Shown here piece by piece: positions 30,487-46,946 of a DNA stretch of 64,000 bases. The notes under the pieces are model-generated. The model did not search any database and was not told the DNA's origin. It saw only the letters and a list, made by a program, of their open reading frames with translations. The DNA comes from an uncultured Bacteroidota bacterium (GTDB lineage: Bacteria; Bacteroidota; Bacteroidia; Bacteroidales; P3): NCBI GenBank assembly GCA_902784465.1, contig CACZUZ010000008.1, forward strand, positions 2,963 through 66,962. Direction: 5' to 3'. Positions within the stretch are counted from its first letter, which is position 1; each line of letters opens with the position of its first letter. A program made the position numbers and the translations under genes.

Positions 30487-30901
30487 GCCACAGATACGCC
30501 AACTCCACGACGGACGGGCAGAGATACTCGACCCTGTACGCCGCCGCTGGGTTGCACTGACTCCCGAAGAGTGGGTACGCCAGCACGCCATAGCGTTTTT
30601 GCATGACCGGTGTGGCTACCCACTCGAACTGATGCAGGTGGAGGCGGCCATAACACTTAACGGACTGACACGCCGTTGCGACATCGTGGTATACGACAAA
30701 AGCTGCCATCCCTGGATGATAGTGGAATGCAAGAAAGAGGAGGTGCCGATAACGCAGAAAGTCGTAGACCAGGCATCGCGCTACAACCTCGTCCTGAGGG
30801 TCCCCTACCTTCTGCTCACCAACGGACGGCAGCAGCTATGCCTTCAGGTCGACACCAAAACTCAGTCTCTCTCTCAAGTCAATCTCCCTCAGCACGAATA
30901 G
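30452..30901 (+). CDS. type I restriction enzyme HsdR N-terminal-domain-like protein (stand-alone)
   Basis: 149 aa with a GTG start. Typical family pattern: LDPVRRRWVALTPEEWVRQH...L....GYP..L...E..I.....R.DIVVY......P.MIVECK. Confidence 0.7.
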   Translation: MKKVATKAQYTEPQIRQLHDGRAEILDPVRRRWVALTPEEWVRQHAIAFLHDRCGYPLELMQVEAAITLNGLTRRCDIVVYDKSCHPWMIVECKKEEVPITQKVVDQASRYNLVLRVPYLLLTNGRQQLCLQVDTKTQSLSQVNLPQHE

Positions 30902-30936
30902 TTATACAAACATTAAACCCATTAAACCTCATTATA

Positions 30937-32064
30937 ATGAAAAGAAACACCCTCATATTCGCAATCGCCTTTGTCGCCCTCACTTTTTCGGCACAGGCTC
31001 AGACGCTGGTGGGCTACCGCAGCCCTAACCCCGGCACTGGAAACATCGGCTACAAAATGGCCATCGAGCCGCAATTCGACTACATCGCCCTCGACTTCTC
31101 CGAAGGCATGGCATGCGTCCGCTTCAAAATGAACGAGTTCCACACCTACATCGACACCACGGGCAAACCAGTCTTCGACAAGAAATACGTCAACGTGGGT
31201 CCTTTCAGCAACGGCTACGCTGCCGTCGAGGTGGAACCGGGCAGTGCTAACTACTCTTTCATCGACCATAAAGGCAAACCCCTCACCGATCAGACTTACA
31301 GAATGCCCCACGACTTTAGCGAAGGGTACGCAGTTATTAAGGTCGACGTCTCCGGTGGCGGCCACTACAGATACAACTACATGGACTCCGAAGGAAAACT
31401 GGTGGGCGAACCCCGTTTCCTCGCTGCCAACAACTTCAGTGAAGGCCATGCCGCCGTACAAGGATCCAACAAAAACTGGATGGTGCTCAACAAACGCTTC
31501 GTGGCCAGCGCAAGCAACCTCCCATACGAGGAAATCAACGAGTTCCACGAAGGTCTGGCCCGCGTCAGAATCGGCGAACGCTACGGCTTCATCGACACCC
31601 TCGGCAACCTGAAAATCCCTATGACCGACGACTATTGCGACTACTCCTTCTCGGAGGGACTCTGCTTGATTAAACGCGCAGGACGCTTCGGATACATGGA
31701 CATGACTGGCAAAGTCGTCATCCCCTGCCGCTTCACCTATGCCGAAGCCTTCTCCTGCAGCCGCGCCGTGGTGAGTGAATCGGCTCCCGATGAGTCGGGC
31801 ATGATAACCGAACGCGGCGTGATTGACCATAACGGCAAATTCGTCATCGAAGAGAAAAAATTCGACTTCATCGAAACGTTCTCCGAGGACTATGCAATCG
31901 TATCCAAAGACGGGAAAAAAGGTTTCATCAATGTCAACGGCAAAGTGGTCATCCCGATGATCTACGAGAACGCTCGCCCCTTCCACGAGGGCTATGCCGC
32001 CGTCAGGGTAGACCGCAAATGGGGCTTCCTCAAACTCGACCGCACCGGCGAAAAACCATTCTAG
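30937..32064 (+). CDS. WG-repeat (KWG) secreted protein, paralogue 1
   Basis: Inner ATG at 30937 gives signal peptide MKRNTLIFAIAFVALTFSAQAQ. The F.EG.A.V....K.G.ID..GK..IP units are repeated. The paralogue at 45816..46946 is closely similar. Confidence 0.8.
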   Translation: MKRNTLIFAIAFVALTFSAQAQTLVGYRSPNPGTGNIGYKMAIEPQFDYIALDFSEGMACVRFKMNEFHTYIDTTGKPVFDKKYVNVGPFSNGYAAVEVEPGSANYSFIDHKGKPLTDQTYRMPHDFSEGYAVIKVDVSGGGHYRYNYMDSEGKLVGEPRFLAANNFSEGHAAVQGSNKNWMVLNKRFVASASNLPYEEINEFHEGLARVRIGERYGFIDTLGNLKIPMTDDYCDYSFSEGLCLIKRAGRFGYMDMTGKVVIPCRFTYAEAFSCSRAVVSESAPDESGMITERGVIDHNGKFVIEEKKFDFIETFSEDYAIVSKDGKKGFINVNGKVVIPMIYENARPFHEGYAAVRVDRKWGFLKLDRTGEKPF

Positions 32065-33597: not shown

Positions 33598-34548
33598 TCA
33601 GTCGCTTACCAACAGGCGCATTTCGCGTTCTCGGTAGATTTCAAATTCTTTCTCTGCTTTTTCTATAGCCTCTTGATGTGATACAGTACCATTGCCTTCT
33701 AAGATATTTTTTCTCAATCGCAATATATGGTCATCTAAAGCAGCAATCCAATCCGCCATAGTCATCGGATTTTGCTCCAACGCCTGAAATTCAGCATAGT
33801 CGAGGAACTGAGAGGTAAGCAGATTCAGCCGTTGCAGTTCCAATTCCGAGAGGTAGTTTTTGGCTATCTTCACATCGTCACGCGTCACGTAGTTACCCTT
33901 GAAGTTGGTCATGCCAACAAAAGGTTTCTCATTATCCACACGATCATAAATCAGCTCTGCTGCCGTATGTTCATGCACGGCATAGTGCATCTTATTCTGA
34001 ACGGTAGCAAAGAACAGCTTCGTCATCTTGGCCCTTGGGTCATAGTCGGTCGATGTGGCATAGATATCCGTAACCTGCTGATAGAAGTTACGTTCGCTGC
34101 TGCGGATGTCGCGGATACGCTGCAAGAGTTCCTTGAAGTATCGGTTGCCACCTTGCTTTAGTCGCTCATCGTCCATCGTAAAGCCCTTTTGAATATACTC
34201 ATGCAACCGTTGAGTAGCCCAGCGACGGAAGCGTACGGCAATGGGCGACTGAACACGGTAACCAAGGGCAATAATCATGTCCAAATTGTAATAGGTTATA
34301 TCTCGTTGCACTTGACGTTTGCCCTCCTGTCGAACTGTCAAGAAATTCTTTACAGTTCGATTCTCCTCCAATTCACCATCGGCCAAAACATTGTCAATAT
34401 GCTGACTTACATTCTGTTTTGTAGTGCAATAGATTTCAGCCAGCTGCTGCTGCGTCAGCCACACATCCTCGTCAGCAAAGCGCACGTTCACATTCACCTT
34501 GCCTTCATCATCCTTATAGAGTATCAGTTTGTTCTCTTTCTCTGCCAT
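33598..34548 (-). CDS. RhuM-family virulence/defence-island protein
   Basis: 316 aa. The RhuM pattern holds throughout: ILYKDDEGKV.V.VRF.DE.VWLTQQQLAE.Y, Y.NLDMIIALGYRV.S..A..FR.WAT..L.EY..KGF, ERNFYQ and TDIYATS.DYD. Confidence 0.85.
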   Translation of the reverse strand: MAEKENKLILYKDDEGKVNVNVRFADEDVWLTQQQLAEIYCTTKQNVSQHIDNVLADGELEENRTVKNFLTVRQEGKRQVQRDITYYNLDMIIALGYRVQSPIAVRFRRWATQRLHEYIQKGFTMDDERLKQGGNRYFKELLQRIRDIRSSERNFYQQVTDIYATSTDYDPRAKMTKLFFATVQNKMHYAVHEHTAAELIYDRVDNEKPFVGMTNFKGNYVTRDDVKIAKNYLSELELQRLNLLTSQFLDYAEFQALEQNPMTMADWIAALDDHILRLRKNILEGNGTVSHQEAIEKAEKEFEIYREREMRLLVSD

Positions 34549-34863: not shown

Positions 34864-37644
34864 CTACACTTTCAAATCTTTTTCCATCTCCATAACTCGT
34901 GGATCATATCCACTCAATCCTTCTGGTTCTTTATTTATCTTTGCCTGAGCTAATTGAATACTGTCGTCAGCAAGTTTCAAATTGAATGAGAGATGGAAAT
35001 CCGGTTTGACCTTGTTCCTGATATCTTTATCAGGATAGAACTCCTTTAACGGCTCAGCATAGCGTCTTTGCAGATAGCCATCGGGGGTATCTATACTAAT
35101 ATTGGCTGTACCCTGAACCATGTATACCTTATGGCTTTTCTTGTTAGAGTATACAAGATAGCCTACGCTGGTGAAGTCTTTGATAACCTGTGGTGTCTTG
35201 GGAGCCACAAACATGGAGGCGCTATAGCCCTTGTCGAGTTTAGATAAGTCGGTGTCATTTATATTGACAACCACAAGCGCTTTGTTGGAATCCCTGTGCG
35301 ATGCAAGAGCATAGTCACTAATCTGTTGTCCTGTCAAGAACACAGGCGACCCATGCCACTCTTCTCGAAGCCATCTCTCAGAAACATCTTCGCCTATGGA
35401 TTTCCTGAATGCTATCTCGTTATAGAGACCTATGTTCAGCATTGCATTTATATTAGCTTGCTCAAAATAAGCCTCTTCCGAGAACGAATACACAATGTAT
35501 GGCCCATCTGGTCTTTCATAGCCATTGCTATCCATCCACTCTGTAGAACGGGTTTTCCAACTCTCAATCCTATAGATATGGTAGTCAAGCTTCTCCCTGT
35601 CATTTATTTCATACAAAACCAAATATCTTGCAGAAACAACATTCTCATCAATAATTCCATTTCTGTAACCATGTCGATTTATTTTTGCTCGAATGTTGTA
35701 CATCATGTGTTCCAGAATCCAATCCAACTGGTTCTTGTCGCCACTGCGGTAGCCTCCCACTAGGAATATTTCGTCCCTGAAGTCTTCGAACTTGAATACC
35801 TTTGACTGGGTTGTCCCCACCCCTTGTCCTTTAGCAGGTCTATATGTCAAATCCGCAAACTTATTGATAACATCGCGTGGATCGGTTCCCAATGCATAAT
35901 AGCGGATGTTGAAATCCATGCTTAATGTTGACAACAATTTCATATTGTCGTCATAGTATTCAGATCCTGTCTCTAAAGAAAGGTATAGGAACTCCTCTTC
36001 CCTGTAAGGTCTGAAGGCTTTGCCTAGCAGTTTGCGGAAGTACTTCTGTTCGACAAGACGATTCATCTTGTCCTTATTAGAAGAATCTTCATCTTCTTCA
36101 GGTGCTTCAACTTCAACAGGTTTCAACTGGAGCGAGAAAAATTGGTATTTCTCTTGAATATCCTTCATAATCTGCTCTCTGAACAGCTTCCTAGCTTTCT
36201 GTTTGAAAGTCTCTTGTGCCAGCACATCCTCGCTGCCATAGACAGACAAAACATACAGGAAATTGATGTCATAGTGCTGGAGCAACAAAGTGTCACGGTC
36301 GAAAAGTCGGTTCTCGAAGTGCACCTTTCGCTCCATTTCACCTTTTATCTCCAGGTCATCGTCTTCATACCCTCTGTCTTCAGGCACATGTGCTCGGATG
36401 AAGAAATTGGGAGTGATATTGTATCCTTCTGTATCTTCATCGCGATAGATCAGGAAGTCATCTCCTGGCGTATATTTTTTGTTGCCGCTGCTGTCCTTTT
36501 GGTTGAACAGGTCAAGATTCGCCTGAATCACATTGCGGGCATATGTATACTGCTTATAGACGGAATACTCCTTAGGGTCATTCTTCTGCTTGTAGTATTT
36601 CGAGTCGCCTATATAGAAGATATCGCCTTGGTTGTGCATAAGTCCGTTGTAGGCATAGATATGGTCAACTCGCTTGCCATCAGTCTGTTCCTTCAGATTC
36701 ATTTTCTCCACACGCTTGTCTTTCTCACATAGCAGATGATCTATCATCTCTTCAAAGACTATGTTGAAATCCTTTGCCAGTAGATGGTCGGAATAGTGGC
36801 TGTTGTTACGTATCTGACTTTGCTTGCTGAAAAAGTCATAGCACAATTGCCACATCTGCACTTGTTTGTCTGCAAAGTAGCGGTGGCGAATCTGTATCAG
36901 CCGTATTTCCCCATAACCATCCAAGTAGTTATCAAAAGCCTCGTCGGTGATGAGTGGGAAATTGTAGTTGATTTTCACGGGAAAGCCATACCTTACCTGC
37001 ATATGTTGAAGAATGGAAAAGAAGATAATGAACAGTTCTTCTTCAAAATTGGCCTGCCGTTTGCGGTTCACCACATCTATATAAACAGGAGAACCATCCT
37101 GTATGACTGCTCGGCCTTGGTTTATGGTCTTTGTCCAGTTAATCTTGTTGTAGCCAGAGTGGATGTTTTTCAGGACAAACGTAAAATAGTTCTGGTTCTC
37201 ATCGTTGAAGCGATGAAGGGAAATCAGAATATCCAGAAATGTGTTATAGACCGATTGACCAGAAAGGCTGTCGGATGGGATATCACGATACAATAATATC
37301 TTTTTATGTTGGTCATCCGCAGAAAAGCGAAACACATTGATGGCACGATAGATCCATACCGACAATCCGTAGATGAATCGGTATTCTTCCTCATTGATGG
37401 TCTTGTTTTCAAGTGATTTCTGAAGGTCAATGATTTTTTCGGGATCATACTGGTGAAACACTTTGTCATCCCTGTCCATCACAACCTTAGGAAGAAAGAA
37501 CACCGTGTCTTTGACATCGTTGGAGTAATAGTATTCCACCATGTCGGTACTATACACTCCGCCCTGCTCAAAGTTAAGAATTTTCTCGAGCAAGGCCTTC
37601 GAAGCCTCTTCTTTGTATTGGTATCCTTCTATAAAAAGCTTCAT
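34864..37644 (-). CDS. LlaJI.R2/McrC-like PD-(D/E)xK nuclease fused to a ~450-aa uncharacterised C-terminal region
   Basis: 926 aa. The N-terminal half has the LlaJI-like start (..VFFLPKV..) and the nuclease core RVD327HIY...IGD347SK349YY. From about aa 470 onward no motif is recognised. Confidence 0.7.
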   Translation of the reverse strand: MKLFIEGYQYKEEASKALLEKILNFEQGGVYSTDMVEYYYSNDVKDTVFFLPKVVMDRDDKVFHQYDPEKIIDLQKSLENKTINEEEYRFIYGLSVWIYRAINVFRFSADDQHKKILLYRDIPSDSLSGQSVYNTFLDILISLHRFNDENQNYFTFVLKNIHSGYNKINWTKTINQGRAVIQDGSPVYIDVVNRKRQANFEEELFIIFFSILQHMQVRYGFPVKINYNFPLITDEAFDNYLDGYGEIRLIQIRHRYFADKQVQMWQLCYDFFSKQSQIRNNSHYSDHLLAKDFNIVFEEMIDHLLCEKDKRVEKMNLKEQTDGKRVDHIYAYNGLMHNQGDIFYIGDSKYYKQKNDPKEYSVYKQYTYARNVIQANLDLFNQKDSSGNKKYTPGDDFLIYRDEDTEGYNITPNFFIRAHVPEDRGYEDDDLEIKGEMERKVHFENRLFDRDTLLLQHYDINFLYVLSVYGSEDVLAQETFKQKARKLFREQIMKDIQEKYQFFSLQLKPVEVEAPEEDEDSSNKDKMNRLVEQKYFRKLLGKAFRPYREEEFLYLSLETGSEYYDDNMKLLSTLSMDFNIRYYALGTDPRDVINKFADLTYRPAKGQGVGTTQSKVFKFEDFRDEIFLVGGYRSGDKNQLDWILEHMMYNIRAKINRHGYRNGIIDENVVSARYLVLYEINDREKLDYHIYRIESWKTRSTEWMDSNGYERPDGPYIVYSFSEEAYFEQANINAMLNIGLYNEIAFRKSIGEDVSERWLREEWHGSPVFLTGQQISDYALASHRDSNKALVVVNINDTDLSKLDKGYSASMFVAPKTPQVIKDFTSVGYLVYSNKKSHKVYMVQGTANISIDTPDGYLQRRYAEPLKEFYPDKDIRNKVKPDFHLSFNLKLADDSIQLAQAKINKEPEGLSGYDPRVMEMEKDLKV

Positions 37645-37651
37645 GCTTCTT

Positions 37652-37834
37652 GTCTTAAACTTACATTTTTTGTATAAATCTATTAATTAGATAACACGTT
37701 ATTTTACAGTATTTTTTACCCTAAATTCGTCTTAAATTTACATTTTTCGTTTAAATCTTACCATCTAACAAAATACTGTATTTGTGAGCTTTATACAAAG
37801 AATTCGTTTAGATTTTACATTTTTCGTTTAAATC
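37652..37834. repeat. ~76-bp tandem repeat (2.4 units) filling the spacer between the AlbA_2 gene and the nuclease gene
   Basis: Three 30-nt cores are present: gtcttaaacttacattttttgtataaatct (37652..37681), gtcttaaatttacatttttcgtttaaatct (37729..37758) and gtttagattttacatttttcgtttaaatct (37805..37834). The periods are 77 and 76 nt. Copies 2 and 3 share 22 identical nt and the preceding aattcgt. Confidence 0.85.
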
Positions 37835-39526
37835 TCACTTGATCAGAACCCACTGTTTTTTCTCGTTCACCTTTATTATTTTGTGTATTCTCAGATAAGA
37901 CAGAAGATTAGTTATCTTATTCTTCTTCTGCTGTTCTGACAATACATCCGACAACTTGTTCATCAGCAGTTCGTCTATCTCCGACCTACTGGCCGTTCCA
38001 AACTTCTCAAGATAATTCACAATCATTCTACGGAAGTACTCGTCGTCAAAGCTCTTGTTCTTCACATACGTCGATTTCAAGCCCACGTTGCCAGTGTTCT
38101 TGGTGATGGCTTTCGAAAGAAACAATCCATTCTTGCGACCCTCAACGTATTTCTTCTTTCTCAAATACTTAATCTCTTCGTCTTCCAATTTCTTTTGCTT
38201 CTGCACCTTGTCAAGCAGAATTAAGTCCAACATAGATAGATTGGGCACGCTGACCAATATCCTGGCAAACTGCTCATTGATGACCTTGCCCTCGATATCC
38301 ACCGTCACCATTCCGCCTGAGGTGTCGTATTCAGGCATAGGAAAGAAACGTTTCTTCTGCTGCTCAAACAGCTTCTTGATGCCACCACCTTCAGTATCCA
38401 CCATGTGCACATTCCTCATGGCTTCAACCAAGAACGGATTACGATAGATGGATTCAGGACTATTGTCCAACACCACTTTTTCCACCGATTCGGGAAGAAA
38501 CACTCCGTGGTTACGGAACACCAAATGGTCGTTCTCATATTCAATCACCTCAATTCTAGCACCTTTCTCGTAGTCTTGATGAGCAATTGCGTTATTCAGT
38601 GGCTCACGCAAAGTGAACTCGTCATATCGGAAGAGCTTTTCTGGGAAAATGTTGCCGCTGATGGTAAACTCATACGATGTGTTGCGAATCTGATCTCCTA
38701 TGTCCTCAATGGCCATAATCATAGGAATGGAGAACACCTTGAAGTCAAGATTCTCCGCCCGCTCGTTCCTCAGCGTCCACCGGACTTTGCAAACTCTCGG
38801 CAGCAGATAGTGTTCTGACTCCTCACGACCCACAAGGATGATAGCCGCTATGGTTATCTTTCCCTTGATGGTGATATGAGCCTTGTTCAGGAATGTCTTG
38901 TCGTCCCATCCGTCCACCTCCTTGTCTTTGCCTGGATGCACTTCTTTATATTTCTCTCGGGCTTTCAAGATGGCAACAGGATCAAGGTCCTCGATGGTGG
39001 CGTCCGGCAGTATCTGAGCCGTCCAGTCTTGTTGCAACATTCCCTCGCTCAAGATGACCTCCTCTCGCTCGTATGTCAAAGGAACGAGGTTGTCCTTGAT
39101 TCTCTGCCAGGCTTTCTTGTGCGCATACACAGGCCTACGGGGCAGATGCTTGGGAATATGAATGACCCATACCACCTTGTGAGTGTCGCTGGTGATGTAT
39201 TCGTCGATATAAAGACCTTCCGAGGAAACGTTAGTGCAATTCTCCTTAATCTTATAGATGGCTGAATTAGTGTCGAGATTGAACTGTGAGAGGTCTGTTC
39301 CAACAATCTCCAACGTCTTATCCTTGACGCCGATTACCAGCACGCCACCCTCCATATTCGCAATGCCCGACACATACGACATCACGTCCTCCCCCTCATG
39401 CCCATTGAAGGAGTTCTTCAGATTCTTCATCTCTTTCCAATCACACTTCTCATCCTCCACTGGATAGTGAGAAACCAGATAATCCCGTAATTCTTTCTCA
39501 GTCATACTTTTCTTGTGATCGCTCAT
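37835..39526 (-). CDS. AlbA_2 (Schlafen-type) / HATPase_c_4 / wHTH protein (COG2865-like putative regulator)
   Basis: The first ATG (39526) lies 1 nt after the McrB-like stop. The track start is TTG at 39550 and would overlap by 23 nt. The AlbA_2 motif is IANMEGGVLVIGVKDKTLEIVG and the HATPase_c_4 motif is LREPLNNAIAHQDYEKGARIEVIEYENDHLVFRNHG. A C-terminal wHTH-like tail is present. Confidence 0.8.
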   Translation of the reverse strand: MSDHKKSMTEKELRDYLVSHYPVEDEKCDWKEMKNLKNSFNGHEGEDVMSYVSGIANMEGGVLVIGVKDKTLEIVGTDLSQFNLDTNSAIYKIKENCTNVSSEGLYIDEYITSDTHKVVWVIHIPKHLPRRPVYAHKKAWQRIKDNLVPLTYEREEVILSEGMLQQDWTAQILPDATIEDLDPVAILKAREKYKEVHPGKDKEVDGWDDKTFLNKAHITIKGKITIAAIILVGREESEHYLLPRVCKVRWTLRNERAENLDFKVFSIPMIMAIEDIGDQIRNTSYEFTISGNIFPEKLFRYDEFTLREPLNNAIAHQDYEKGARIEVIEYENDHLVFRNHGVFLPESVEKVVLDNSPESIYRNPFLVEAMRNVHMVDTEGGGIKKLFEQQKKRFFPMPEYDTSGGMVTVDIEGKVINEQFARILVSVPNLSMLDLILLDKVQKQKKLEDEEIKYLRKKKYVEGRKNGLFLSKAITKNTGNVGLKSTYVKNKSFDDEYFRRMIVNYLEKFGTASRSEIDELLMNKLSDVLSEQQKKNKITNLLSYLRIHKIIKVNEKKQWVLIK

Positions 39527-39527
39527 G

Positions 39528-41009
39528 TCACTGTTCTTCGTTTTTGGCAATTACTTTGTCGATAAACTCCTTTACCAAAGAAAGGTCGATAGCTTCGGGG
39601 TTCGTAGCCTCGTCAGGAGTGATATTGTCTGGATAAAAGTCGTGGAAAGAAATCTTATTGCTATTCGCCCTTTTGAAGATGTCGCTCTTGAAGCCATAGT
39701 CTTTGAACACATCCTGCCACAGGTAGAACACCACCTTGCCCACAAAGGTCTCGGCAGAAATGATGGTGTTGTATTCGTCAGCCTCATCGGCTTTCTTGTC
39801 CGGCTTGCAGAAGAAGTAGCCCAATTTCTTGTCCTCGCTCTTGGTGGCATCTTCTATCTGTTTATTGATAGCTTTGACGAAATTCCACCATGGTACATCA
39901 ACAAGTTCAGCGGGCTCCTCGTCCTTGGCTGGAATGGTGAATTTGATTCTATAATTCAAGGGCTCTCCATCCTTCTTTTTGCCCTCAGCGATACGAACAT
40001 ATTTCCATTCCCATCTACGTTTGAAAGCGCTGTCGATGGGGAACAAACTTTGGTCGCTAGTGTTCATCGTCGCCCAAATGTAGAGGTTCTTGGGCAGACG
40101 CAACTTTCCATCTTTTATGCCATCCTTATTGGTCAAAATATCCTTACCGTTCTCATCTTTCCCGTTAAGGTATTTGGCCAAGTCCTTATCTGCCATTATG
40201 GGATATTCCGAGCAACCGTCGCGATCTCTGTCAAGCAGTTGGAACAGGTCTCCGAAAATCTGTGCGCAGTTGCCGCGATTGATTTCCTCGATGACAAGGA
40301 ACACTTTATCGTCCGGGTTGTTCCATGCCGCCACGTAGGCCTGGAGAAAAGCCTGTGGTACAAAAGAGTAGGTGATGCACTTTTCGTACACCTCTTCCTT
40401 GTCAGTGTTTTTCACTATGTCACCAGCCACATTGCGAACAGCTCTTTTATCCATGGTAGGCTTGTATGCACCCACAAATGTCGAATAGTCACTATCAGGA
40501 TGGAATGTGGTGCGGAACACCAAGTTCTTTTCATCGGCAGCCTTCACGCCTGCGTCATCCTTTATTCTGTGGCTTTTGCCTGTGCCTGGGGCTCCGTAGA
40601 ATATTTGTTGGAGAGCAAGGTCGTTCACTTCATTCTTTTCTTTCTCCGTAGGAACATTTAAGAACATTTTTTTTGCATACAAAAACCTCAAATAGTGTTT
40701 TAATGTGTTAGAATACTGGTTTCCACCCTTTTCATCATAATCAACAAACTTTTTTTGATTGGTCAGTTTGTTAATTACATCTTCAAACTCAACAGGATTG
40801 TCAAAATCCAGAATGGAAATTCCCTGTTTTTTGGGGAACAATAATTCAAGACACTCATTTATTCGTTTGAAATCAGAGTAATTTTTCACACTCTTTGCAT
40901 TGGTTGTGCACTTGATTATGAAATCCTGATATAAATGAAGTTGCTTTTCTATGTTCATTTTTCTTGTTTTTGAAGTTCCTTGCTCATTGTTCGCTTCCAC
41001 TATATCCAT
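39528..41009 (-). CDS. McrB-type AAA+ GTPase (LlaJI.R1-like) with unassigned N-terminal domain
   Basis: 493 aa, or 476 aa from the ATG at 40958. It has Walker A FYGAPGTGKSH, Walker B VFLVIEEINRGN, McrB signatures IFGDLFQLLDRD and IWATMNTSDQS, and FKRRWEW. Confidence 0.85.
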   Translation of the reverse strand: MDIVEANNEQGTSKTRKMNIEKQLHLYQDFIIKCTTNAKSVKNYSDFKRINECLELLFPKKQGISILDFDNPVEFEDVINKLTNQKKFVDYDEKGGNQYSNTLKHYLRFLYAKKMFLNVPTEKEKNEVNDLALQQIFYGAPGTGKSHRIKDDAGVKAADEKNLVFRTTFHPDSDYSTFVGAYKPTMDKRAVRNVAGDIVKNTDKEEVYEKCITYSFVPQAFLQAYVAAWNNPDDKVFLVIEEINRGNCAQIFGDLFQLLDRDRDGCSEYPIMADKDLAKYLNGKDENGKDILTNKDGIKDGKLRLPKNLYIWATMNTSDQSLFPIDSAFKRRWEWKYVRIAEGKKKDGEPLNYRIKFTIPAKDEEPAELVDVPWWNFVKAINKQIEDATKSEDKKLGYFFCKPDKKADEADEYNTIISAETFVGKVVFYLWQDVFKDYGFKSDIFKRANSNKISFHDFYPDNITPDEATNPEAIDLSLVKEFIDKVIAKNEEQ

Positions 41010-41207: not shown

Positions 41208-41293
41208 TCACATATCAGTCACATAAAACAAACTCTGTTTTTCAGTAGTTTACATTTTACTACCACTTGAGTCATCACATATCAGTCACATAA
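41208..41293. repeat. perfect 19-bp direct repeat pair
   Basis: tcacatatcagtcacataa occurs at 41208..41226 and 41275..41293, 48 nt apart, immediately 3' of the DUF1016 stop codon (41298..41300). Confidence 0.9.
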
Positions 41294-41297
41294 GATT

Positions 41298-42344
41298 TCA
41301 TTCATTCTTGGATTCCTCTTCTTCCACAATCTTTCCCACAATCTGCCGCAACCGCTCTGTGTCGGGCAGATAAAGCTCGTATTTCGACACGAATAGGTTG
41401 GTGTTTATACCATAGGTGGCATATTCCACCATCAGGTCGTCCTTGTAGTGCGAGAGGATGATGCCGATGGGAGGATTGTCATCGGGTTGATTCTCTTCCT
41501 TTGCAAAATAACCGAGATACATATTCATTTGACCTATGTCCTCGTGCTGTACCCCGTCACGTTTTAGATCAATAAGGACAAAACAACGCAATATGCGGTG
41601 ATAAAACACCAAGTCGCAATGGTAGTGGCGATTGTTGACGGAGATGGAATATTGCCGTTTGACGAACGTGAAACCCTTTCCCATCTCGAGCAGGAACATC
41701 TGCAGGTTGTCTATGATGCGCTGTTCCAACAGCGTCTCTGAATAACGGTAGTCTTCCTGAATTCCAAGGAACTCCAATGTGTAACTGTCGCGAACCACAT
41801 CTTCCGGCTTTTGGATGGTGATGCCCTCTTTGGCCAATGCAAGCACGCCCTCTTTGTCTTTGCTGGCCGCCAAACGGAGATACAAGGCCGAACTCATCTG
41901 TCGTTTCAAAGTGCGCACATCCCACTTCTGAGCGATGCACTCTTTCTCGTAAAAACTACGTTCAAGGTCGTCTTCTGCCTGCATCAATACGCAAATATGC
42001 GTCCAGCTCAAATTGTCAGTCACTGACTGACAATTGGGGTATAACAGATAGAACTTTCTCATATTCACAAGGTTGGGGCGACTGAACCCACGTCCAAAGC
42101 GCACCGTGAGTTGATGTGAAAGTTCGGTCAATGTGGAAGTGCCGTAAGCCACCTTCGCTTGCCCACCCTGCTCGTATTCCACAATGTATTTCCCAATCTG
42201 CCAATAGGCTTTGGTCATCGTGGCGTTGATATGAGAGGCAACCTTTCTGCGCGCATCGTTGATGGCCATCGATATGTTGTCAATCAACGGTTGCAGCGTA
42301 GTGATACTATCTGTGGTGGTAATGACTTTTGACATAGTCGTCAT
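41298..42344 (-). CDS. DUF1016/YhcG-family PDDEXK nuclease
   Basis: 348 aa. The YhcG pattern is AYWQIGK.IVE.EQ...KA.YG, LS.L..FGRGFS..NL..MR.FY and FY....I...W.VR.L.RQ. The nuclease core is HCDLVFYH..L.C.VLIDLK. Confidence 0.85.
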   Translation of the reverse strand: MTTMSKVITTTDSITTLQPLIDNISMAINDARRKVASHINATMTKAYWQIGKYIVEYEQGGQAKVAYGTSTLTELSHQLTVRFGRGFSRPNLVNMRKFYLLYPNCQSVTDNLSWTHICVLMQAEDDLERSFYEKECIAQKWDVRTLKRQMSSALYLRLAASKDKEGVLALAKEGITIQKPEDVVRDSYTLEFLGIQEDYRYSETLLEQRIIDNLQMFLLEMGKGFTFVKRQYSISVNNRHYHCDLVFYHRILRCFVLIDLKRDGVQHEDIGQMNMYLGYFAKEENQPDDNPPIGIILSHYKDDLMVEYATYGINTNLFVSKYELYLPDTERLRQIVGKIVEEEESKNE

Positions 42345-42975: not shown

Positions 42976-43583
42976 ATGAAACTAACAGAGTTAAAGGATG
43001 TTATTGAAATGCAAATGGATGCTTTGTCATCTAATTTGGGTATGCCGCGAACTTTGACACCAACTATTGAACACCAAATTGAAGGTTTTGCCACCGTTAT
43101 TTCAGGCATCCGTCGATGCGGAAAAAGCACCATTATGGCCCAGGTCATAAACAAAACTCCCGAACCAAACATCTACCTGAATTTTGACACACCTAGGTTG
43201 AGCAACTTCACCCTGAATGACTTTGAACTGGTCGATGCATTAGCTAAAAAACTCAATGCAAAACATTTGTTTTTCGACGAAATTCAACTTGTTCATGGTT
43301 GGGAAAACTACGTCCGAAGCACACTCGACAATGCATCGTATGCACAAAAAACACACCTACTCTCGCCTGCCAAGTATGCTATGAACTAGACCGCGACAAC
43401 GAGGCTCGCGAGATTGACGGACTGCTCAACGCTATGGAAAACCTTAATATCGCCACGGGACTTATCCTTACATTCAATCAGACCGACACTATAACAAAAA
43501 ACAATCATAAAATTGAGGTCTTGCCAGCATGGAAATACTTTAGCATAAATCACCCCTGTACCAATCGTACACCATTGTGCTAA
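42976..43583 (+). pseudogene. decayed AAA ATPase (AAA_14 + DUF4143 family) with an internal deletion/frameshift
   Basis: The N-terminal frame (42976..43389) has Walker A GIRRCGKST and LFFDEIQLVHGWE. The C-terminal frame (43299..43583) has QVCYELDRDNEAREIDGLL.A. The central part expected for this family is missing. Confidence 0.6.
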
Positions 43584-43966
43584 TCGTTTTGTATCAATTC
43601 TATGATGCTTCTATCCGCCGGCAACCAATTGACGCTTGCAAGCTCGTCTTTCCTGAGCCACCGTGCCGCCTTGTGTTCGTTCAAGCGGAGGGTGTCCGAC
43701 CGCAGCGTGCAGAGGTAGCAATGCATTGTCAGATGGAACTTCGGGTAGTCGTACTCCACCGTGCAGAGCAACGCCTCTACTCCGATTTCGGCAGAAAGCT
43801 CCTCGCGAATCTCTCGTTTCAGAGCCTCCTCTGATGTCTCGCCTGGCTCAATCTTCCCTCCGGGGAATTCCCACCAATCCTTCCACTCGCCATAACCGCG
43901 CTGCGTGGCGAAGACGCGACCCTCGGCATCGCGTATGATTGCAGCCACAACTTCGACTTGTTTCAT
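43580..43966 (-). CDS. mutT: NUDIX hydrolase (MutT-type 8-oxo-dGTP / CTP pyrophosphohydrolase)
   Basis: 128 aa with Nudix box GGKIEPGETSEEALKREIREEL and a WEFPGG context. Confidence 0.75.
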   Translation of the reverse strand: MKQVEVVAAIIRDAEGRVFATQRGYGEWKDWWEFPGGKIEPGETSEEALKREIREELSAEIGVEALLCTVEYDYPKFHLTMHCYLCTLRSDTLRLNEHKAARWLRKDELASVNWLPADRSIIELIQND

Positions 43967-44139
43967 GATAAACCCTTGTTTTTCAAATCATTTATGATAA
44001 CGACAAATACAGGTGAGAAGCCTTGCGTTGCAAGAACATATTGCTCAGCAGTTTCGATCCCTGCCGAAGTGCCCGTATCAGCTCCTTTATCGACCTAAAA
44101 GCTGCCATTTTACCGTTCTTCCAATCCTTTGTCGAATTG

Positions 44140-44733
44140 CTATCTAATATCCAGAATTTTATGAATCTGGAGCGAGAGTCGCCACTGCGGGTTTTGCTTG
44201 ACGTAATCTATTGCGGCCTGCACAATAGCGGTGTTGCGGGTTGGGTCGCCGGTATCGCATGGCTGAAGGAATAGGCGTTCCACTGTAGTGGCAGCGAGGC
44301 TACGACACTGCGAGGAAGGGTCGTGGATGCCATCGAAAACGACCTTGATCTCGTCGGCACGGGTGATGACGGGCAAGGCCCGAGCGCCGACGAAAGCATC
44401 CTTTGGCGAGAGGGTAATCCAGTCGACATTGTCGGGCAAGGCATGGGTGCCATTGGTCTCGACAGCCACATATTTCCCTTCGAAATGGAGCTTGTCGACC
44501 AGCGAGGCAGTGAGCTGCAAGGCTGGCTCACCTCCTGTGACAACCACATGACGCGCAGGGTATTGGCAGACCTCGGAGACAATGGCTTCCTCGGTCATCT
44601 CGGTACCCGACTCATGCTGCGTGTCGCAGAAAGGGCAACGGAGGTTGCAGCCACTCAGCCGCACGAAGATGGAAGGGGCTCCGCTGTAGAACCCTTCACC
44701 CTGCAGGGAATAGAATATCTCGTTTACTTTCAT
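44140..44733 (-). CDS. queE: 7-carboxy-7-deazaguanine synthase (radical SAM)
   Basis: 197 aa. It has FYSLQGEG...G.PSIFVRLSGCNLRCPFCDT and lies in a queC-queD-queE order. Confidence 0.85.
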   Translation of the reverse strand: MKVNEIFYSLQGEGFYSGAPSIFVRLSGCNLRCPFCDTQHESGTEMTEEAIVSEVCQYPARHVVVTGGEPALQLTASLVDKLHFEGKYVAVETNGTHALPDNVDWITLSPKDAFVGARALPVITRADEIKVVFDGIHDPSSQCRSLAATTVERLFLQPCDTGDPTRNTAIVQAAIDYVKQNPQWRLSLQIHKILDIR

Positions 44734-44743
44734 CGGACGATTG

Positions 44744-45079
44744 TCAACTGTCTACTTCGTATGTCGCCGTATTGCCGCTGGTTTCCTGCACGTCGACGCG
44801 GTAGCAGTTAGGCACCTGTTGCTGGCACCAGCGCGCAATGTTCTCGGCAGTAGGGTTGCAGCCGATGATGTCGTTTATCACTTTATGGTCGAGCTGGTCG
44901 ACGATGCTTTTTTTGATGTGAGAGAAGTCTACAACCATGCCGTTGTTATCGAGCTCGCGGCTCTTGCAGTAGATGGTAATCTGCCAGTTGTGGCCATGCA
45001 GCTCGGTACACTTGCTCGGGTAGTCGAGTTCGAGACGGTGTGCACCGGAGACTTCTATATGTTTGGTTACGTAATACAT
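44744..45079 (-). CDS. queD: 6-carboxy-5,6,7,8-tetrahydropterin synthase
   Basis: 111 aa with the PTPS pattern ..SGAHRL......C..LHGHNW and DH..IND. Confidence 0.85.
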   Translation of the reverse strand: MYYVTKHIEVSGAHRLELDYPSKCTELHGHNWQITIYCKSRELDNNGMVVDFSHIKKSIVDQLDHKVINDIIGCNPTAENIARWCQQQVPNCYRVDVQETSGNTATYEVDS

Positions 45080-45156
45080 TGGTGAATTGTGGGTTGTGAA
45101 TTGTGAATTGACGAACGACCTGAAACTTGCAGTTTGAAACCTGAAACAAACATCTT

Positions 45157-45816
45157 TCAGCTCTCATATTGTGTCGGGTCGGGGATACCGGCTAGGCGGA
45201 AGGCGTCGCGCCGCTCGGTACAGGTGCCGCAGGTGCCGCAATGCCGTTCGCCGCCACGGTAGCAGGAATAGGTTTTACCATAGTCGATGCCGAGGACGGC
45301 ACCACGACGGACAATGTCGGCCTTGCTGATGTCGGTATAGGGGGCCACAAGCCGCACCCCGTCGTAGGTGCCTGCCTGCATAGCACCATCCATGGCAGCC
45401 ACGAAGCCGGGACGGCAGTCGGGATAGATGGCGTGGTCGCCGCCATGGTTGGCGATGAGTACCCGTTTCAGCCCGCGACTCTCGGCGAGACCGCAGGCCA
45501 CGGAGAGCATGATGCCGTTGCGGAAAGGCACCACAGTGCTTTTCATGTTGGCCTCGTCGTAGTTGCCGCTGGGGATGGCGTCGGCCCCGCTGAGCAGCGA
45601 CGAGTTGAAGTATCGGCCCATGAAGGCCAGCTCTATCACCAGATGCTCGATGGCGAGGGCCTCGCAATGGTGACGGGCACATGCTATCTCGCGACGAGCA
45701 TGGTTGCTGCCATAGTCGAAGGTGACGGCCAACGCAATACGTGCCTGCTCCTCGTAGAGCAGCGTGGTAGAATCCAACCCACCGGAGTAGATAATTACAG
45801 AATCTTTTTCAGGCAT
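45157..45816 (-). CDS. queC: 7-cyano-7-deazaguanine synthase
   Basis: 219 aa with a PP-loop (IIYSGGLDSTT) and a C-terminal Zn cluster C.....HCGTCGTCTER. Confidence 0.9.
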   Translation of the reverse strand: MPEKDSVIIYSGGLDSTTLLYEEQARIALAVTFDYGSNHARREIACARHHCEALAIEHLVIELAFMGRYFNSSLLSGADAIPSGNYDEANMKSTVVPFRNGIMLSVACGLAESRGLKRVLIANHGGDHAIYPDCRPGFVAAMDGAMQAGTYDGVRLVAPYTDISKADIVRRGAVLGIDYGKTYSCYRGGERHCGTCGTCTERRDAFRLAGIPDPTQYES

Positions 45817-46946
45817 TATTTCATTTTATTGTAGTTGTCCAGGTCGGCGAGCTTCAGGAAACCCCATTTGCCGTTCTGTCTCACGGCAGCATAACCCTCG
45901 TGGAACGACCTTACTTTTTCGTATTTCATCGGGATGACAACCTTGCCGTTGACATTGATGAAACCATATTTGCCATCCCGGGCAACGACAGCATAGCATT
46001 CGGAGAAAGACTCGATACCGTCGAACAGTTCCTCTTCGACCACCCAGTTGCCGTCGTGGTCGATGATACCGCGGTTTGCAATCATGCCCGACTCGCCGGG
46101 AGACGACTGGCTGACGACGGCACGGCTACAGGAAAACGGCTGGGCAAGAGTGTAGCGGCATGGTATCACGATGCGGCCACTCATGTCCATGTAGCCGTAG
46201 CGGTCGCCCTGTTTGACGACACAGAGTCCCTCGGAAAACTGGGGTCCGAACCACATGTCGCTCATCGGTATCTTCAGGTTGCCAAGGGTGTCGATGAAGC
46301 CATAGCGGTCGCCTATCTTGACTCGCGCAAGACCTTCGTGGAACTCCTCTATCTCGTCGTAAGGGAGGTTGCCCGAAGTGGCCTTGAACATCCTGTTCAG
46401 CACCTGCCAATTGCCGGGCCTCACCATTACGGCCGCATGACCTTCGCTGAAACTCCGGGCACCGTAGAAGCGTGGCTCGCCGACAGACTGCCCTTTGGTG
46501 TCGATATAGGTATACCTGTAATGGCCTCCGCCTGTCACATCGACGCCCACCACAGCATAGCCTTCGCTGAATTGTTTGGGGAAATGGTAATACTGCCGGG
46601 TGAGATTGTCGCCTTTCTTGTCGATGAATACATAGTCGCCATCAGTGGGATTGACCTGCACAGCGGCGAAACCATTACTGTATGGCTGCATGTTGGGGAA
46701 CTGCTTGTTGAAAGCGGGCTTGCCATTGGTGTCGATGAAGGTATGGAACTGGCCTCTCTGAATCGTGACACAGGCCATCCCCTCGGAGAAATCGAGGGCC
46801 ACTTCGTCGAACTGAGGTTCGATGGCCATCGTGTAGCTGGCATTGCGGTTGCCAGGATTGGGGGCACGGTAGCCCACCAACTGTGCCTGTGCAATGGATG
46901 CTAATGAAAAAAAGGCGGTAGCGATAATCAAAAATAGTTTTTTCAT
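45816..46946 (-). CDS. WG-repeat (KWG) secreted protein, paralogue 2
   Basis: 376 aa with signal peptide MKKLFLIIATAFFSLASIAQAQ. It shares long identical runs with 30937..32064. Its stop TAA shares one base with the queC ATG (TAATG at 45814..45818). Confidence 0.8.
   Translation of the reverse strand: MKKLFLIIATAFFSLASIAQAQLVGYRAPNPGNRNASYTMAIEPQFDEVALDFSEGMACVTIQRGQFHTFIDTNGKPAFNKQFPNMQPYSNGFAAVQVNPTDGDYVFIDKKGDNLTRQYYHFPKQFSEGYAVVGVDVTGGGHYRYTYIDTKGQSVGEPRFYGARSFSEGHAAVMVRPGNWQVLNRMFKATSGNLPYDEIEEFHEGLARVKIGDRYGFIDTLGNLKIPMSDMWFGPQFSEGLCVVKQGDRYGYMDMSGRIVIPCRYTLAQPFSCSRAVVSQSSPGESGMIANRGIIDHDGNWVVEEELFDGIESFSECYAVVARDGKYGFINVNGKVVIPMKYEKVRSFHEGYAAVRQNGKWGFLKLADLDNYNKMK

Follow-up and report, generated by a model that had tools for sequence, protein, structure and literature searches.

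LlaJI of Lactococcus lactis pNP40 has the gene order M1, M2, R1 and R2, in which R1 is an McrB-like GTPase and R2 a PD-(D/E)xK nuclease (PMC1459862). The N-terminal sequence-specific DNA-binding domain that LlaJI.R1 carries in Helicobacter pylori is B3-like (as cited in PMC12707154), and a census of McrBC systems, which used RE_LlaJI as an alias of McrC, noted clades associated with DNA methyltransferases (MTases) (PMC11090510). It is well established that restriction–modification (R-M) operons can harbour toxin-like genes, among them PrrC, RhuM and Fic/Doc (PMC3710099). Here we describe a locus of three minus-strand genes, termed A, B and C, located between positions 34864 and 41009 of a 64,000-nucleotide stretch of DNA (the window) from an uncultured Bacteroidota bacterium (contig CACZUZ010000008.1). 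A encodes an McrB-type GTPase and C a predicted LlaJI.R2-type nuclease; between them lies B, which encodes a Schlafen protein.

An earlier note on this DNA, made from the sequence alone, interpreted the three genes as a single undescribed defence module. The three open reading frames (ORFs) were found where the note had placed them and the sequence features cited in its favour are there, but the notion of one integral module was only partly supported, and the locus is better described as two known units. We consider it probable that A and C form an MTase-less pair of the LlaJI/McrBC type, and that B is an autonomous Schlafen gene embedded between them.

The assignment of A (39528..40958, minus strand) as an McrB-type GTPase was borne out by Pfam, NCBIfam, PDB sequence and Foldseek searches. 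The motifs GAPGTGKS, FLVIEEINRG, ATMNTSDQS (NxxD) and FKRRWEW, listed in the earlier note, are all present, and the GTPase motifs are invariant across homologues. A matches Pfam AAA_5 and NCBIfam McrB; in the PDB sequence search it matched McrB of T. gammatolerans (1e-12) and of E. coli (5e-9). With the AlphaFold 2 (AF2) model Foldseek found Bacillus subtilis YdiS (3e-19, 34% identity) and McrB structures (~1e-8). The ORF extends from 39528 to 41009 as had been reported, but the start at 41009 had to be corrected: homologues and gene callers use M18 (40958), which yields a protein of 476 aa instead of the 493 aa of the full ORF.

In the AF2 model of A the N-terminal domain (residues 18-117 of the 493-aa ORF) is a five-helix bundle (residues 20-117; predicted local distance difference test score, pLDDT, 80-89), followed by the AAA+ core with the Walker A, Walker B, NxxD and RR motifs. 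No relative of the bundle was found in Pfam or by PDB profile search, the latter returning designed TIM barrels only. A has neither the beta-rich DNA-reader domain known for McrB or LlaJI.R1 nor a DUF3578, EVE, YTH or SRA modified-base reader domain, and the C-terminal extension of its longer relatives is also absent. The helical N-domain was found in three settings: in operons consisting of an m5C (5-methylcytosine) MTase, a GHKL protein, a response regulator, A and C; in GTPases whose genes directly abut those of LlaJI.R2-type nucleases; and in GTPases paired with canonical McrC (DUF2357 + PDDEXK_7), as in loci L115 and L131. In the latter two loci a gene stands between the helical-N McrB-like GTPase and the canonical McrC, a Fic gene in L115 (L115:1830-6787) and a 206-aa Schlafen/AlbA_2 gene in L131 (L131:403-4518). 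The nearest relatives of the A N-domain with known context (L112 and L113, 82% identity in the N-domain) belong to MTase-containing operons. The six-gene operon of L113 (L113:1146-7680) starts with an m5C MTase and a 714-aa double-GHKL protein (HATPase_c_3 + HATPase_c), and continues with a 201-aa response-regulator receiver, a 214-aa unassigned protein, the helical-N GTPase and a LlaJI.R2-like nuclease. Operons of this type, which also occur in L112, L125, L014 and L031, look like a restriction system under two-component-style regulation.

C (34864..37644, minus strand) is predicted to be a long-form PD-(D/E)xK nuclease of the LlaJI.R2/BsuMI-YdjA type, 926 aa in length. The protein itself has no match in Pfam (DUF2357, PDDEXK_7 and McrBC included), PADLOC, NCBIfam or PDB sequences, and a PDB profile search and Pfam scans of its sub-domains at E <=10 found nothing either. 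The LlaJI.R2-like character suggested in the earlier note is thus not backed by a direct family match; it is supported through homologues, invariant residues and the fold of YdjA. A homology search gave at least 7,999 family members among the 8,000 candidates scored. Five of 22 aligned C homologues pass the gathering score of RE_LlaJI (PF09563) over residues ~130-380, the long forms being 50-56% identical. In the annotated record of a Pedobacter plasmid with the LlaJI-type order M1-M2-AAA ATPase-R2, the 554-aa R2 is 33% identical to residues 1-493 of C, and the whole of this R2 corresponds to the nuclease core of C (residues 1-500; 36145..37644, minus strand). The residues that the earlier note named for the nuclease, D327 and D347-S-K349, are located in this core and proved invariant in the family alignment. 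For the AF2 model of C, which was built from the 22-sequence alignment, the top Foldseek match was YdjA, the nuclease-type subunit of B. subtilis BsuMI (E 1e-3).

About 400 residues of C, modelled with high confidence, extend beyond the nuclease core. Residues ~617-736 (35437..35796, minus strand) make up an unannotated mobile domain of ~125 aa, which is characterized by the motif fLxGxYR..K.QL.WI...YNVR...R.G...LY...M..l.YP.P.G.Y.VY. This domain recurs at the N-terminus of m5C (PF00145) and D12 DNA MTases and also forms stand-alone proteins of 150-225 aa; one stand-alone copy, in L111, adjoins NOV_C and Schlafen genes. Neither Pfam nor the PDB sequences gave a match to it, and the profile of residues 615-785 gave only a spurious match to DHFR among PDB sequences. 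When the MTases of the same operons were tested, the domain was not found in them. Weak YTH/EVE-like fold matches (E 0.07-2) were obtained with the model of the whole protein and are not assignable to this domain. The C-terminal residues 786-926 (34867..35289, minus strand) constitute an extra beta-rich domain confined to the long-form clade. A long-form homologue 80% identical to C overall is encoded on a plasmid-like contig carrying Rep3 and relaxase genes (L085:1-13406). Its start is overlapped by a 149-aa ORF, the only one that precedes it, for which no Pfam match is on record; a CoiA-like protein and a Schlafen-HATPase_c_4 gene follow downstream.

Comparison of the window with L084, which has the same B-spacer-C layout, yielded ratios of nonsynonymous to synonymous substitution rates (dN/dS) of 0.18 for C and 0.05 for the tail of B, values that indicate purifying selection on both.

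Next we consider the gene order in the family, whose canonical form has R1 and R2 abutting behind one or two MTases. Eighty genome loci encoding C relatives were fetched, as well as further metagenome loci. The distance between A and C was determined in the 66 loci in which both genes were resolved: in 51 of them the gap is <=20 nt or the genes overlap (-4 or -1). The upstream flank measures at least 4 kb in 47 loci; 37 of these (79%) carry co-directional MTases upstream, 23 of them with at least two m5C MTases. Fifteen loci have Vsr. A search seeded with Dam-like and N6 MTases found MTases in three loci only; neighbour clustering and Pfam indicated that m5C MTases dominate. In the case of the closest long-form C relatives, which are 81-90% identical, the genes upstream are D12 or N6 MTases and an R1 of 600-676 aa. 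Because their relatives share this gene order with upstream MTases, A and C are placed, by homology, in the LlaJI/BsuMI branch of the McrBC family, a branch that the published census covered (PMC11090510). The remaining 10 of the 47 loci (~21%) have no MTase within 10 kb, and several of these MTase-less A-C pairs stand beside housekeeping or other defence genes. A different string was observed in L093 (L093:3932-13578), where an AAA_15/21 ATPase, DUF3226, a 734-aa unassigned protein, an A-like GTPase (456 aa), YhcG, a LlaJI.R2-like nuclease (740 aa) and Vsr follow in series and no m5C MTase was seen; strings of this type also occur in L094-L096 and L134.

The window's locus belongs to the MTase-less group. 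The earlier note had reported that no MTase is encoded there, and this was confirmed both for the surrounding low-GC island and for the whole window. Pfam analysis of the neighbouring genes revealed no MTase in the island. Over the 64 kb there was no match to m5C-MTase hidden Markov models and no phmmer match to D12, N6 or PglX MTase queries, and the motif (D/N/S)PP(Y/F/W/H) is absent from every ORF of at least 180 aa.

B (37835..39526, minus strand; a longer ORF reaches 39550) is a prokaryotic Schlafen protein. The domain assignment of the earlier note was correct for SLFN_AlbA_2 (PF04326; residues 24-149, E 3.8e-11) and for HATPase_c_4 (PF13749; residues 322-409, E 4.6e-11), which also matched PDB 3lmm. 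The winged helix-turn-helix (wHTH) tail suggested there was not detected: B itself has no Pfam match to a helix-turn-helix (HTH) domain, but HTH_24, MarR and DeoR matches were found in the B-like proteins of L034, L079 and L002. Among PDB entries SLFN14 and SLFN11 gave weak matches. The junction cag-TGA-c-ATG between A and B was found as the note had given it, with the ATG of B 1 nt past the stop codon of A.

Prokaryotic Schlafens are anti-phage tRNase effectors found mostly in defence islands; 69.6% have defence genes no more than 10 kb away (PMC13056530). Of 5,930 such proteins 19.2% show the Schlafen-HisKinase-HTH architecture, which has been published as a single-gene anti-phage family (PMC13056530); in bacteriophage exclusion (BREX) loci the same fusion has been catalogued as a backup effector, in 1017 taxa or more (PMC12839542). 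By its predicted domains, the HTH tail being presumed, B belongs to this published architecture. A homologue 88% identical to B stands alone among housekeeping genes in at least five contigs, and another, 73% identical, is situated in type 1 BREX with pglX on one side and pglZ on the other (445 index blocks). At 90% identity the cluster of B has 195 members, compared with 4 for A and 5 for C. On account of the stand-alone and BREX relatives, the large cluster and the published architecture, we favour the view that B is a Schlafen defence gene in its own right which was inserted at the R1-R2 junction.

The space between A and C recurrently takes accessory effector genes. In 9 of the 66 loci the A-C gap exceeds 400 nt, and eight of these nine contain a co-directional ORF, seven with a Pfam match. 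The Pfam assignments include DUF6169, Bro-N, RhuM (L020), YhcG (twice) and DUF2971; L034 and L079 have AlbA_2-HATPase_c_4-HTH genes in the slot, with gaps of 10-22 nt. In L012, with a gap of 584 nt, the ORF that was scanned lies on the opposite strand and has no Pfam match; a co-directional ORF is also present there. In L070 an AlbA_2-HATPase_c_4-HTH gene is directly upstream of C, and the contig ends before any A. B-like genes were found near A-C in 10 of the 80 loci, in upstream, intermediate or downstream position, and those in the slot fall into at least three unrelated subfamilies with a mutual identity of just 20-30%. Conservation of the A-B-C order, which the earlier note had suggested checking, was not observed, and with A and C abutting in most loci and the slot genes interchangeable, the view of B as an integral part of a distinct three-gene system is not supported. 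The window's B occupies the slot in a single lineage; insertions of other Schlafen-type genes recur there, in L034, L079, L131 and probably L070, and therefore some functional coupling of such genes with A-C is possible.

By homology with McrBC and LlaJI, A would assemble into an AAA+ hexamer with bound GTP. C would plug into the A ring with its N-terminal part and stimulate GTP hydrolysis; the A-C complex would move along the DNA by translocation, and cutting would be done by the PD-(D/E)xK residues of C (D327, D347, K349), the C-terminal domains of C perhaps helping to choose targets. B, if it acts like the characterised bacterial Schlafens, would be a phage-triggered tRNA nuclease which arrests growth.

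B would have entered the R1-R2 junction within a string of co-directional genes, and the insertion would have broken the usual translational coupling of R1 and R2. C is preceded by the repeat-filled spacer of 190 bp that the earlier note had described (37645..37834, minus strand). Repeat finding and pattern search identified three copies of a 30-nt motif (37652-37681, 37729-37758 and 37806-37835) with a period of 77 bp, none being expected by chance; Tandem Repeats Finder missed them. The last repeat ends ~7 nt before the ATG of C. The repeats were seen only in the window's lineage (the window, L092 and L084), and comparison of these three spacers was uninformative because the copies are 99% identical. 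We infer that the repeats constitute a putative promoter/operator region for C, which C would have acquired or kept after the insertion of B. Upstream of A, in the intergenic region between A and the YhcG gene, the 19-nt sequence TTATGTGACTGATATGTGA is present in two exact copies (41208-41226 and 41275-41293, minus strand) 67 bp apart, with ~0.01 matches expected by chance. This repeated sequence is a possible operator or promoter of A.

Several observations weigh against the interpretation of the locus as two separate units, or limit it. C scores below every curated family threshold and its membership is deduced by transitive homology. The nuclease core of C was poorly modelled, with pLDDT <50 at residues 104-460. 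Both the interaction between A and C and their activity are predictions. Passenger genes occur in 7/16 lineages of the helical-N clade compared with 7/63 other lineages (Fisher p = 0.006, a rough test, as the lineages are not fully independent), and this enrichment, together with the 1-nt gap between A and B, fits functional coupling better than accidental insertion. As to the targets, a Type IV-like specificity is weakened by the MTase operons in which the N-domain relatives of A are found in L112 and L113, and an unlinked MTase may be encoded beyond the window.

The question of the target concerns only the A + C unit. We put at about even the chances that A + C needs no dedicated self-methylation, being Type IV-like or otherwise non-self-targeting. 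We lean towards a Type IV-like enzyme because a foreign, MTase-less cassette under purifying selection fits poorly with the cutting of unmodified host DNA. A somewhat less probable alternative, which differs in target class only, is that A + C is a conventional LlaJI-type enzyme that cuts unmodified sites and relies on one or more MTases whose genes lie elsewhere in the genome. Restriction of unmethylated DNA is the activity of both LlaJI and BsuMI (PMC1459862, PMC10034627), cis MTases accompany 79% of the family loci, and over its first 780 residues C has ~90% identity to an R2 that is flanked by three D12 MTases. Against a trans-acting MTase it can be said that none is encoded in the 64 kb, and that about one in five related loci (~21%) likewise has none within 10 kb. 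Moreover, the genes lie on an island of foreign composition, and a cassette consisting of restriction genes only and directed against unmodified DNA would presumably be hard to establish after transfer.

Coupling of the guard type, on the model of PrrC and EcoprrI, would make B a backup abortive-infection tRNase controlled or triggered by A-C. B would fire when a phage disables or evades A-C, and the slot would be a selected docking site for effectors. The tightness of the A-B junction (1 nt) and of the corresponding junctions of the B-like genes in L034 and L079 (10-22 nt) would suit such coupling, as would the enrichment of passengers in the helical-N clade and the repeated presence in the slot of Schlafen, Fic, YhcG and RhuM genes, which are toxin-like; there are published cases of effectors carried within R-M and BREX operons (PMC3710099, PMC12839542). 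However, near-identical homologues of B occur alone or in BREX where A and C are missing, and dependence on A-C can therefore not be intrinsic to B. The variable position of B-like genes relative to A-C also speaks against it, and we regard guarding as unlikely. The broader proposition that helical-N McrB-like GTPases define a modular three-gene class is similarly doubtful. In such a class the slot would be the docking site for exchangeable effectors (Schlafen-HisKinase-HTH, short Schlafen, Fic, YhcG, DUF6169) and the nuclease would be either LlaJI.R2-type or McrC. If it were real, an often MTase-less GTPase-nuclease pair would combine first-line restriction with a guard that licenses an effector, and the PrrC principle would extend to the McrBC family.

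An obligate three-component enzyme, in which the AlbA_2 and wHTH parts of B provide target recognition or regulation for an R1 devoid of a reader, appears highly improbable. A lacks a beta-rich N-terminal reader and a C-terminal extension, BsuMI has three restriction genes (ydiR-ydiS-ydjA; PMC10034627), and in L079 the arrangement of a helical-N A, a B-like gene and C is repeated in the absence of an MTase. Nevertheless, equally short helical-N A genes abut C in L120, L123 and L097, and in L113 A overlaps C. The middle gene is also interchangeable between unrelated folds, and the low mutual identity of the B-like proteins in the slot (20-30%) contrasts with the 88% identity of the window's B to a stand-alone gene. 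Least probable of all, a decaying R-M remnant with non-functional genes, for which the loss of MTases, the broken R1-R2 overlap and a truncated AAA_14 fragment nearby might be cited, was rejected because dN/dS within the lineage is low for C and for the tail of B, the more so as the three ORFs are intact, the catalytic motifs are kept and C has its own upstream repeats and promoter-like region.

We return to the two-unit reading and to the surroundings of the locus. The genes lie on an island at ~33.5-43.5 kb with a GC content of ~0.42, compared with ~0.54 in the flanks of the window; this low-GC island was probably acquired horizontally. Neither an integrase nor a flanking tRNA was found at the island, the sole tRNA gene of the window being tRNA-Ser at 721-811. 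The exact A-B-spacer-C-RhuM string was recovered solely from contigs of the window's lineage, and the locus was also met in other metagenome samples. Upstream of A is the gene of a YhcG/DUF1016 PD-(D/E)xK protein (41298..42344, minus strand; PADLOC candidate PDC-S02), and downstream of C that of a RhuM-family protein (33598..34548, minus strand; PADLOC candidate PDC-S05). A 137-aa AAA_14 fragment at the island edge (42976-43389, plus strand) is probably a truncated ATPase gene. Genes of WG_beta_rep repeat proteins stand one on each side of the island, at 30676-32064 (plus strand) and 45816-46946 (minus strand). Just beyond the island there is a cluster encoding QueC, a PTPS (QueD-type) protein, a radical-SAM protein (likely QueE) and a NUDIX protein (43580-45816), where the GC content is mostly back at the level of the flanks. 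A tie between these QueC/QueD/QueE genes and 7-deazaguanine DNA modification was considered and set aside, the genes being GC-normal and outside the island.

If A + C and B are indeed two units, the locus amounts to an ordinary, layered island of defence genes and its value lies mainly in annotation. A large Bacteroidales family of at least 7,999 members, almost all unnamed or 'hypothetical' and mostly without a Pfam match, would be recognized as LlaJI.R2/YdjA-type nucleases. About one fifth of the R1-R2 pairs of this family lack MTases, and accessory effectors have landed repeatedly at the junction of R1 and R2. Worth experiment are three points: the possible switch of MTase-less LlaJI-type pairs to Type IV-like targeting, the possible guarding of embedded Schlafen, Fic or YhcG proteins by an McrBC-like complex, and the role of the ~125-aa domain common to the C-terminus of the nucleases and the N-terminus of m5C and D12 MTases.

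Compared with the described systems, the locus resembles LlaJI, a Type II/IV hybrid R-M system, in combining an McrB-type GTPase with a predicted nuclease of the RE_LlaJI family in co-directional genes, and most relatives of the A-C pair have the LlaJI order M-M-R1-R2. It differs in the absence of MTases and in the separation of R1 and R2 by a 1.7-kb gene and the 190-bp spacer. At the protein level, A has the helical N-domain in place of the B3-like site-reading domain of LlaJI R1, and C is ~400 aa longer than LlaJI R2, with extra C-terminal domains.

In structure the closest counterparts are the BsuMI proteins of B. subtilis (PDB 9a5m model), YdiS for A and YdjA for C, which gave the best structural matches. 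YdiS resembles A in being McrB-like but short and in having no large reader domain. BsuMI, too, has three genes in its restriction operon. The third gene, however, lies between the R1 and R2 homologues in the window, whereas the order in BsuMI is ydiR-ydiS-ydjA, and the two adjacent m5C MTase genes of BsuMI (ydiO-ydiP) have no counterpart here.

With the Type IV McrBC systems of E. coli and T. gammatolerans the locus shares an AAA+ GTPase with the NxxD motif, a separate protein that is a predicted PD-(D/E)xK nuclease and the lack of a cognate MTase; in addition, the helical N-domain of A is found on the McrB homologues of L115 and L131, which are paired with canonical McrC. It departs from them in that C does not match the DUF2357, PDDEXK_7 or McrBC families of Pfam, and A is devoid of the DUF3578, EVE, YTH or SRA reader.

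B has the same domain order as the pSlfn Schlafen-HisKinase-HTH class (PMC13056530), its tail being presumed to be a wHTH, and is likewise set in a defence island. The BREX-embedded Schlafens (PMC12839542) offer a parallel in the 73%-identical homologue between pglX and pglZ; here the host operon is an McrBC/LlaJI-type pair instead, and the tRNase activity of B is a prediction. The locus is also akin to PrrC-EcoprrI, in which an effector gene is carried inside a restriction operon, and RhuM-like and Fic/Doc-like genes occur in equivalent positions. PrrC, however, is an anticodon nuclease of the ABC-ATPase-HEPN type belonging to a Type I system, whereas B is a Schlafen.

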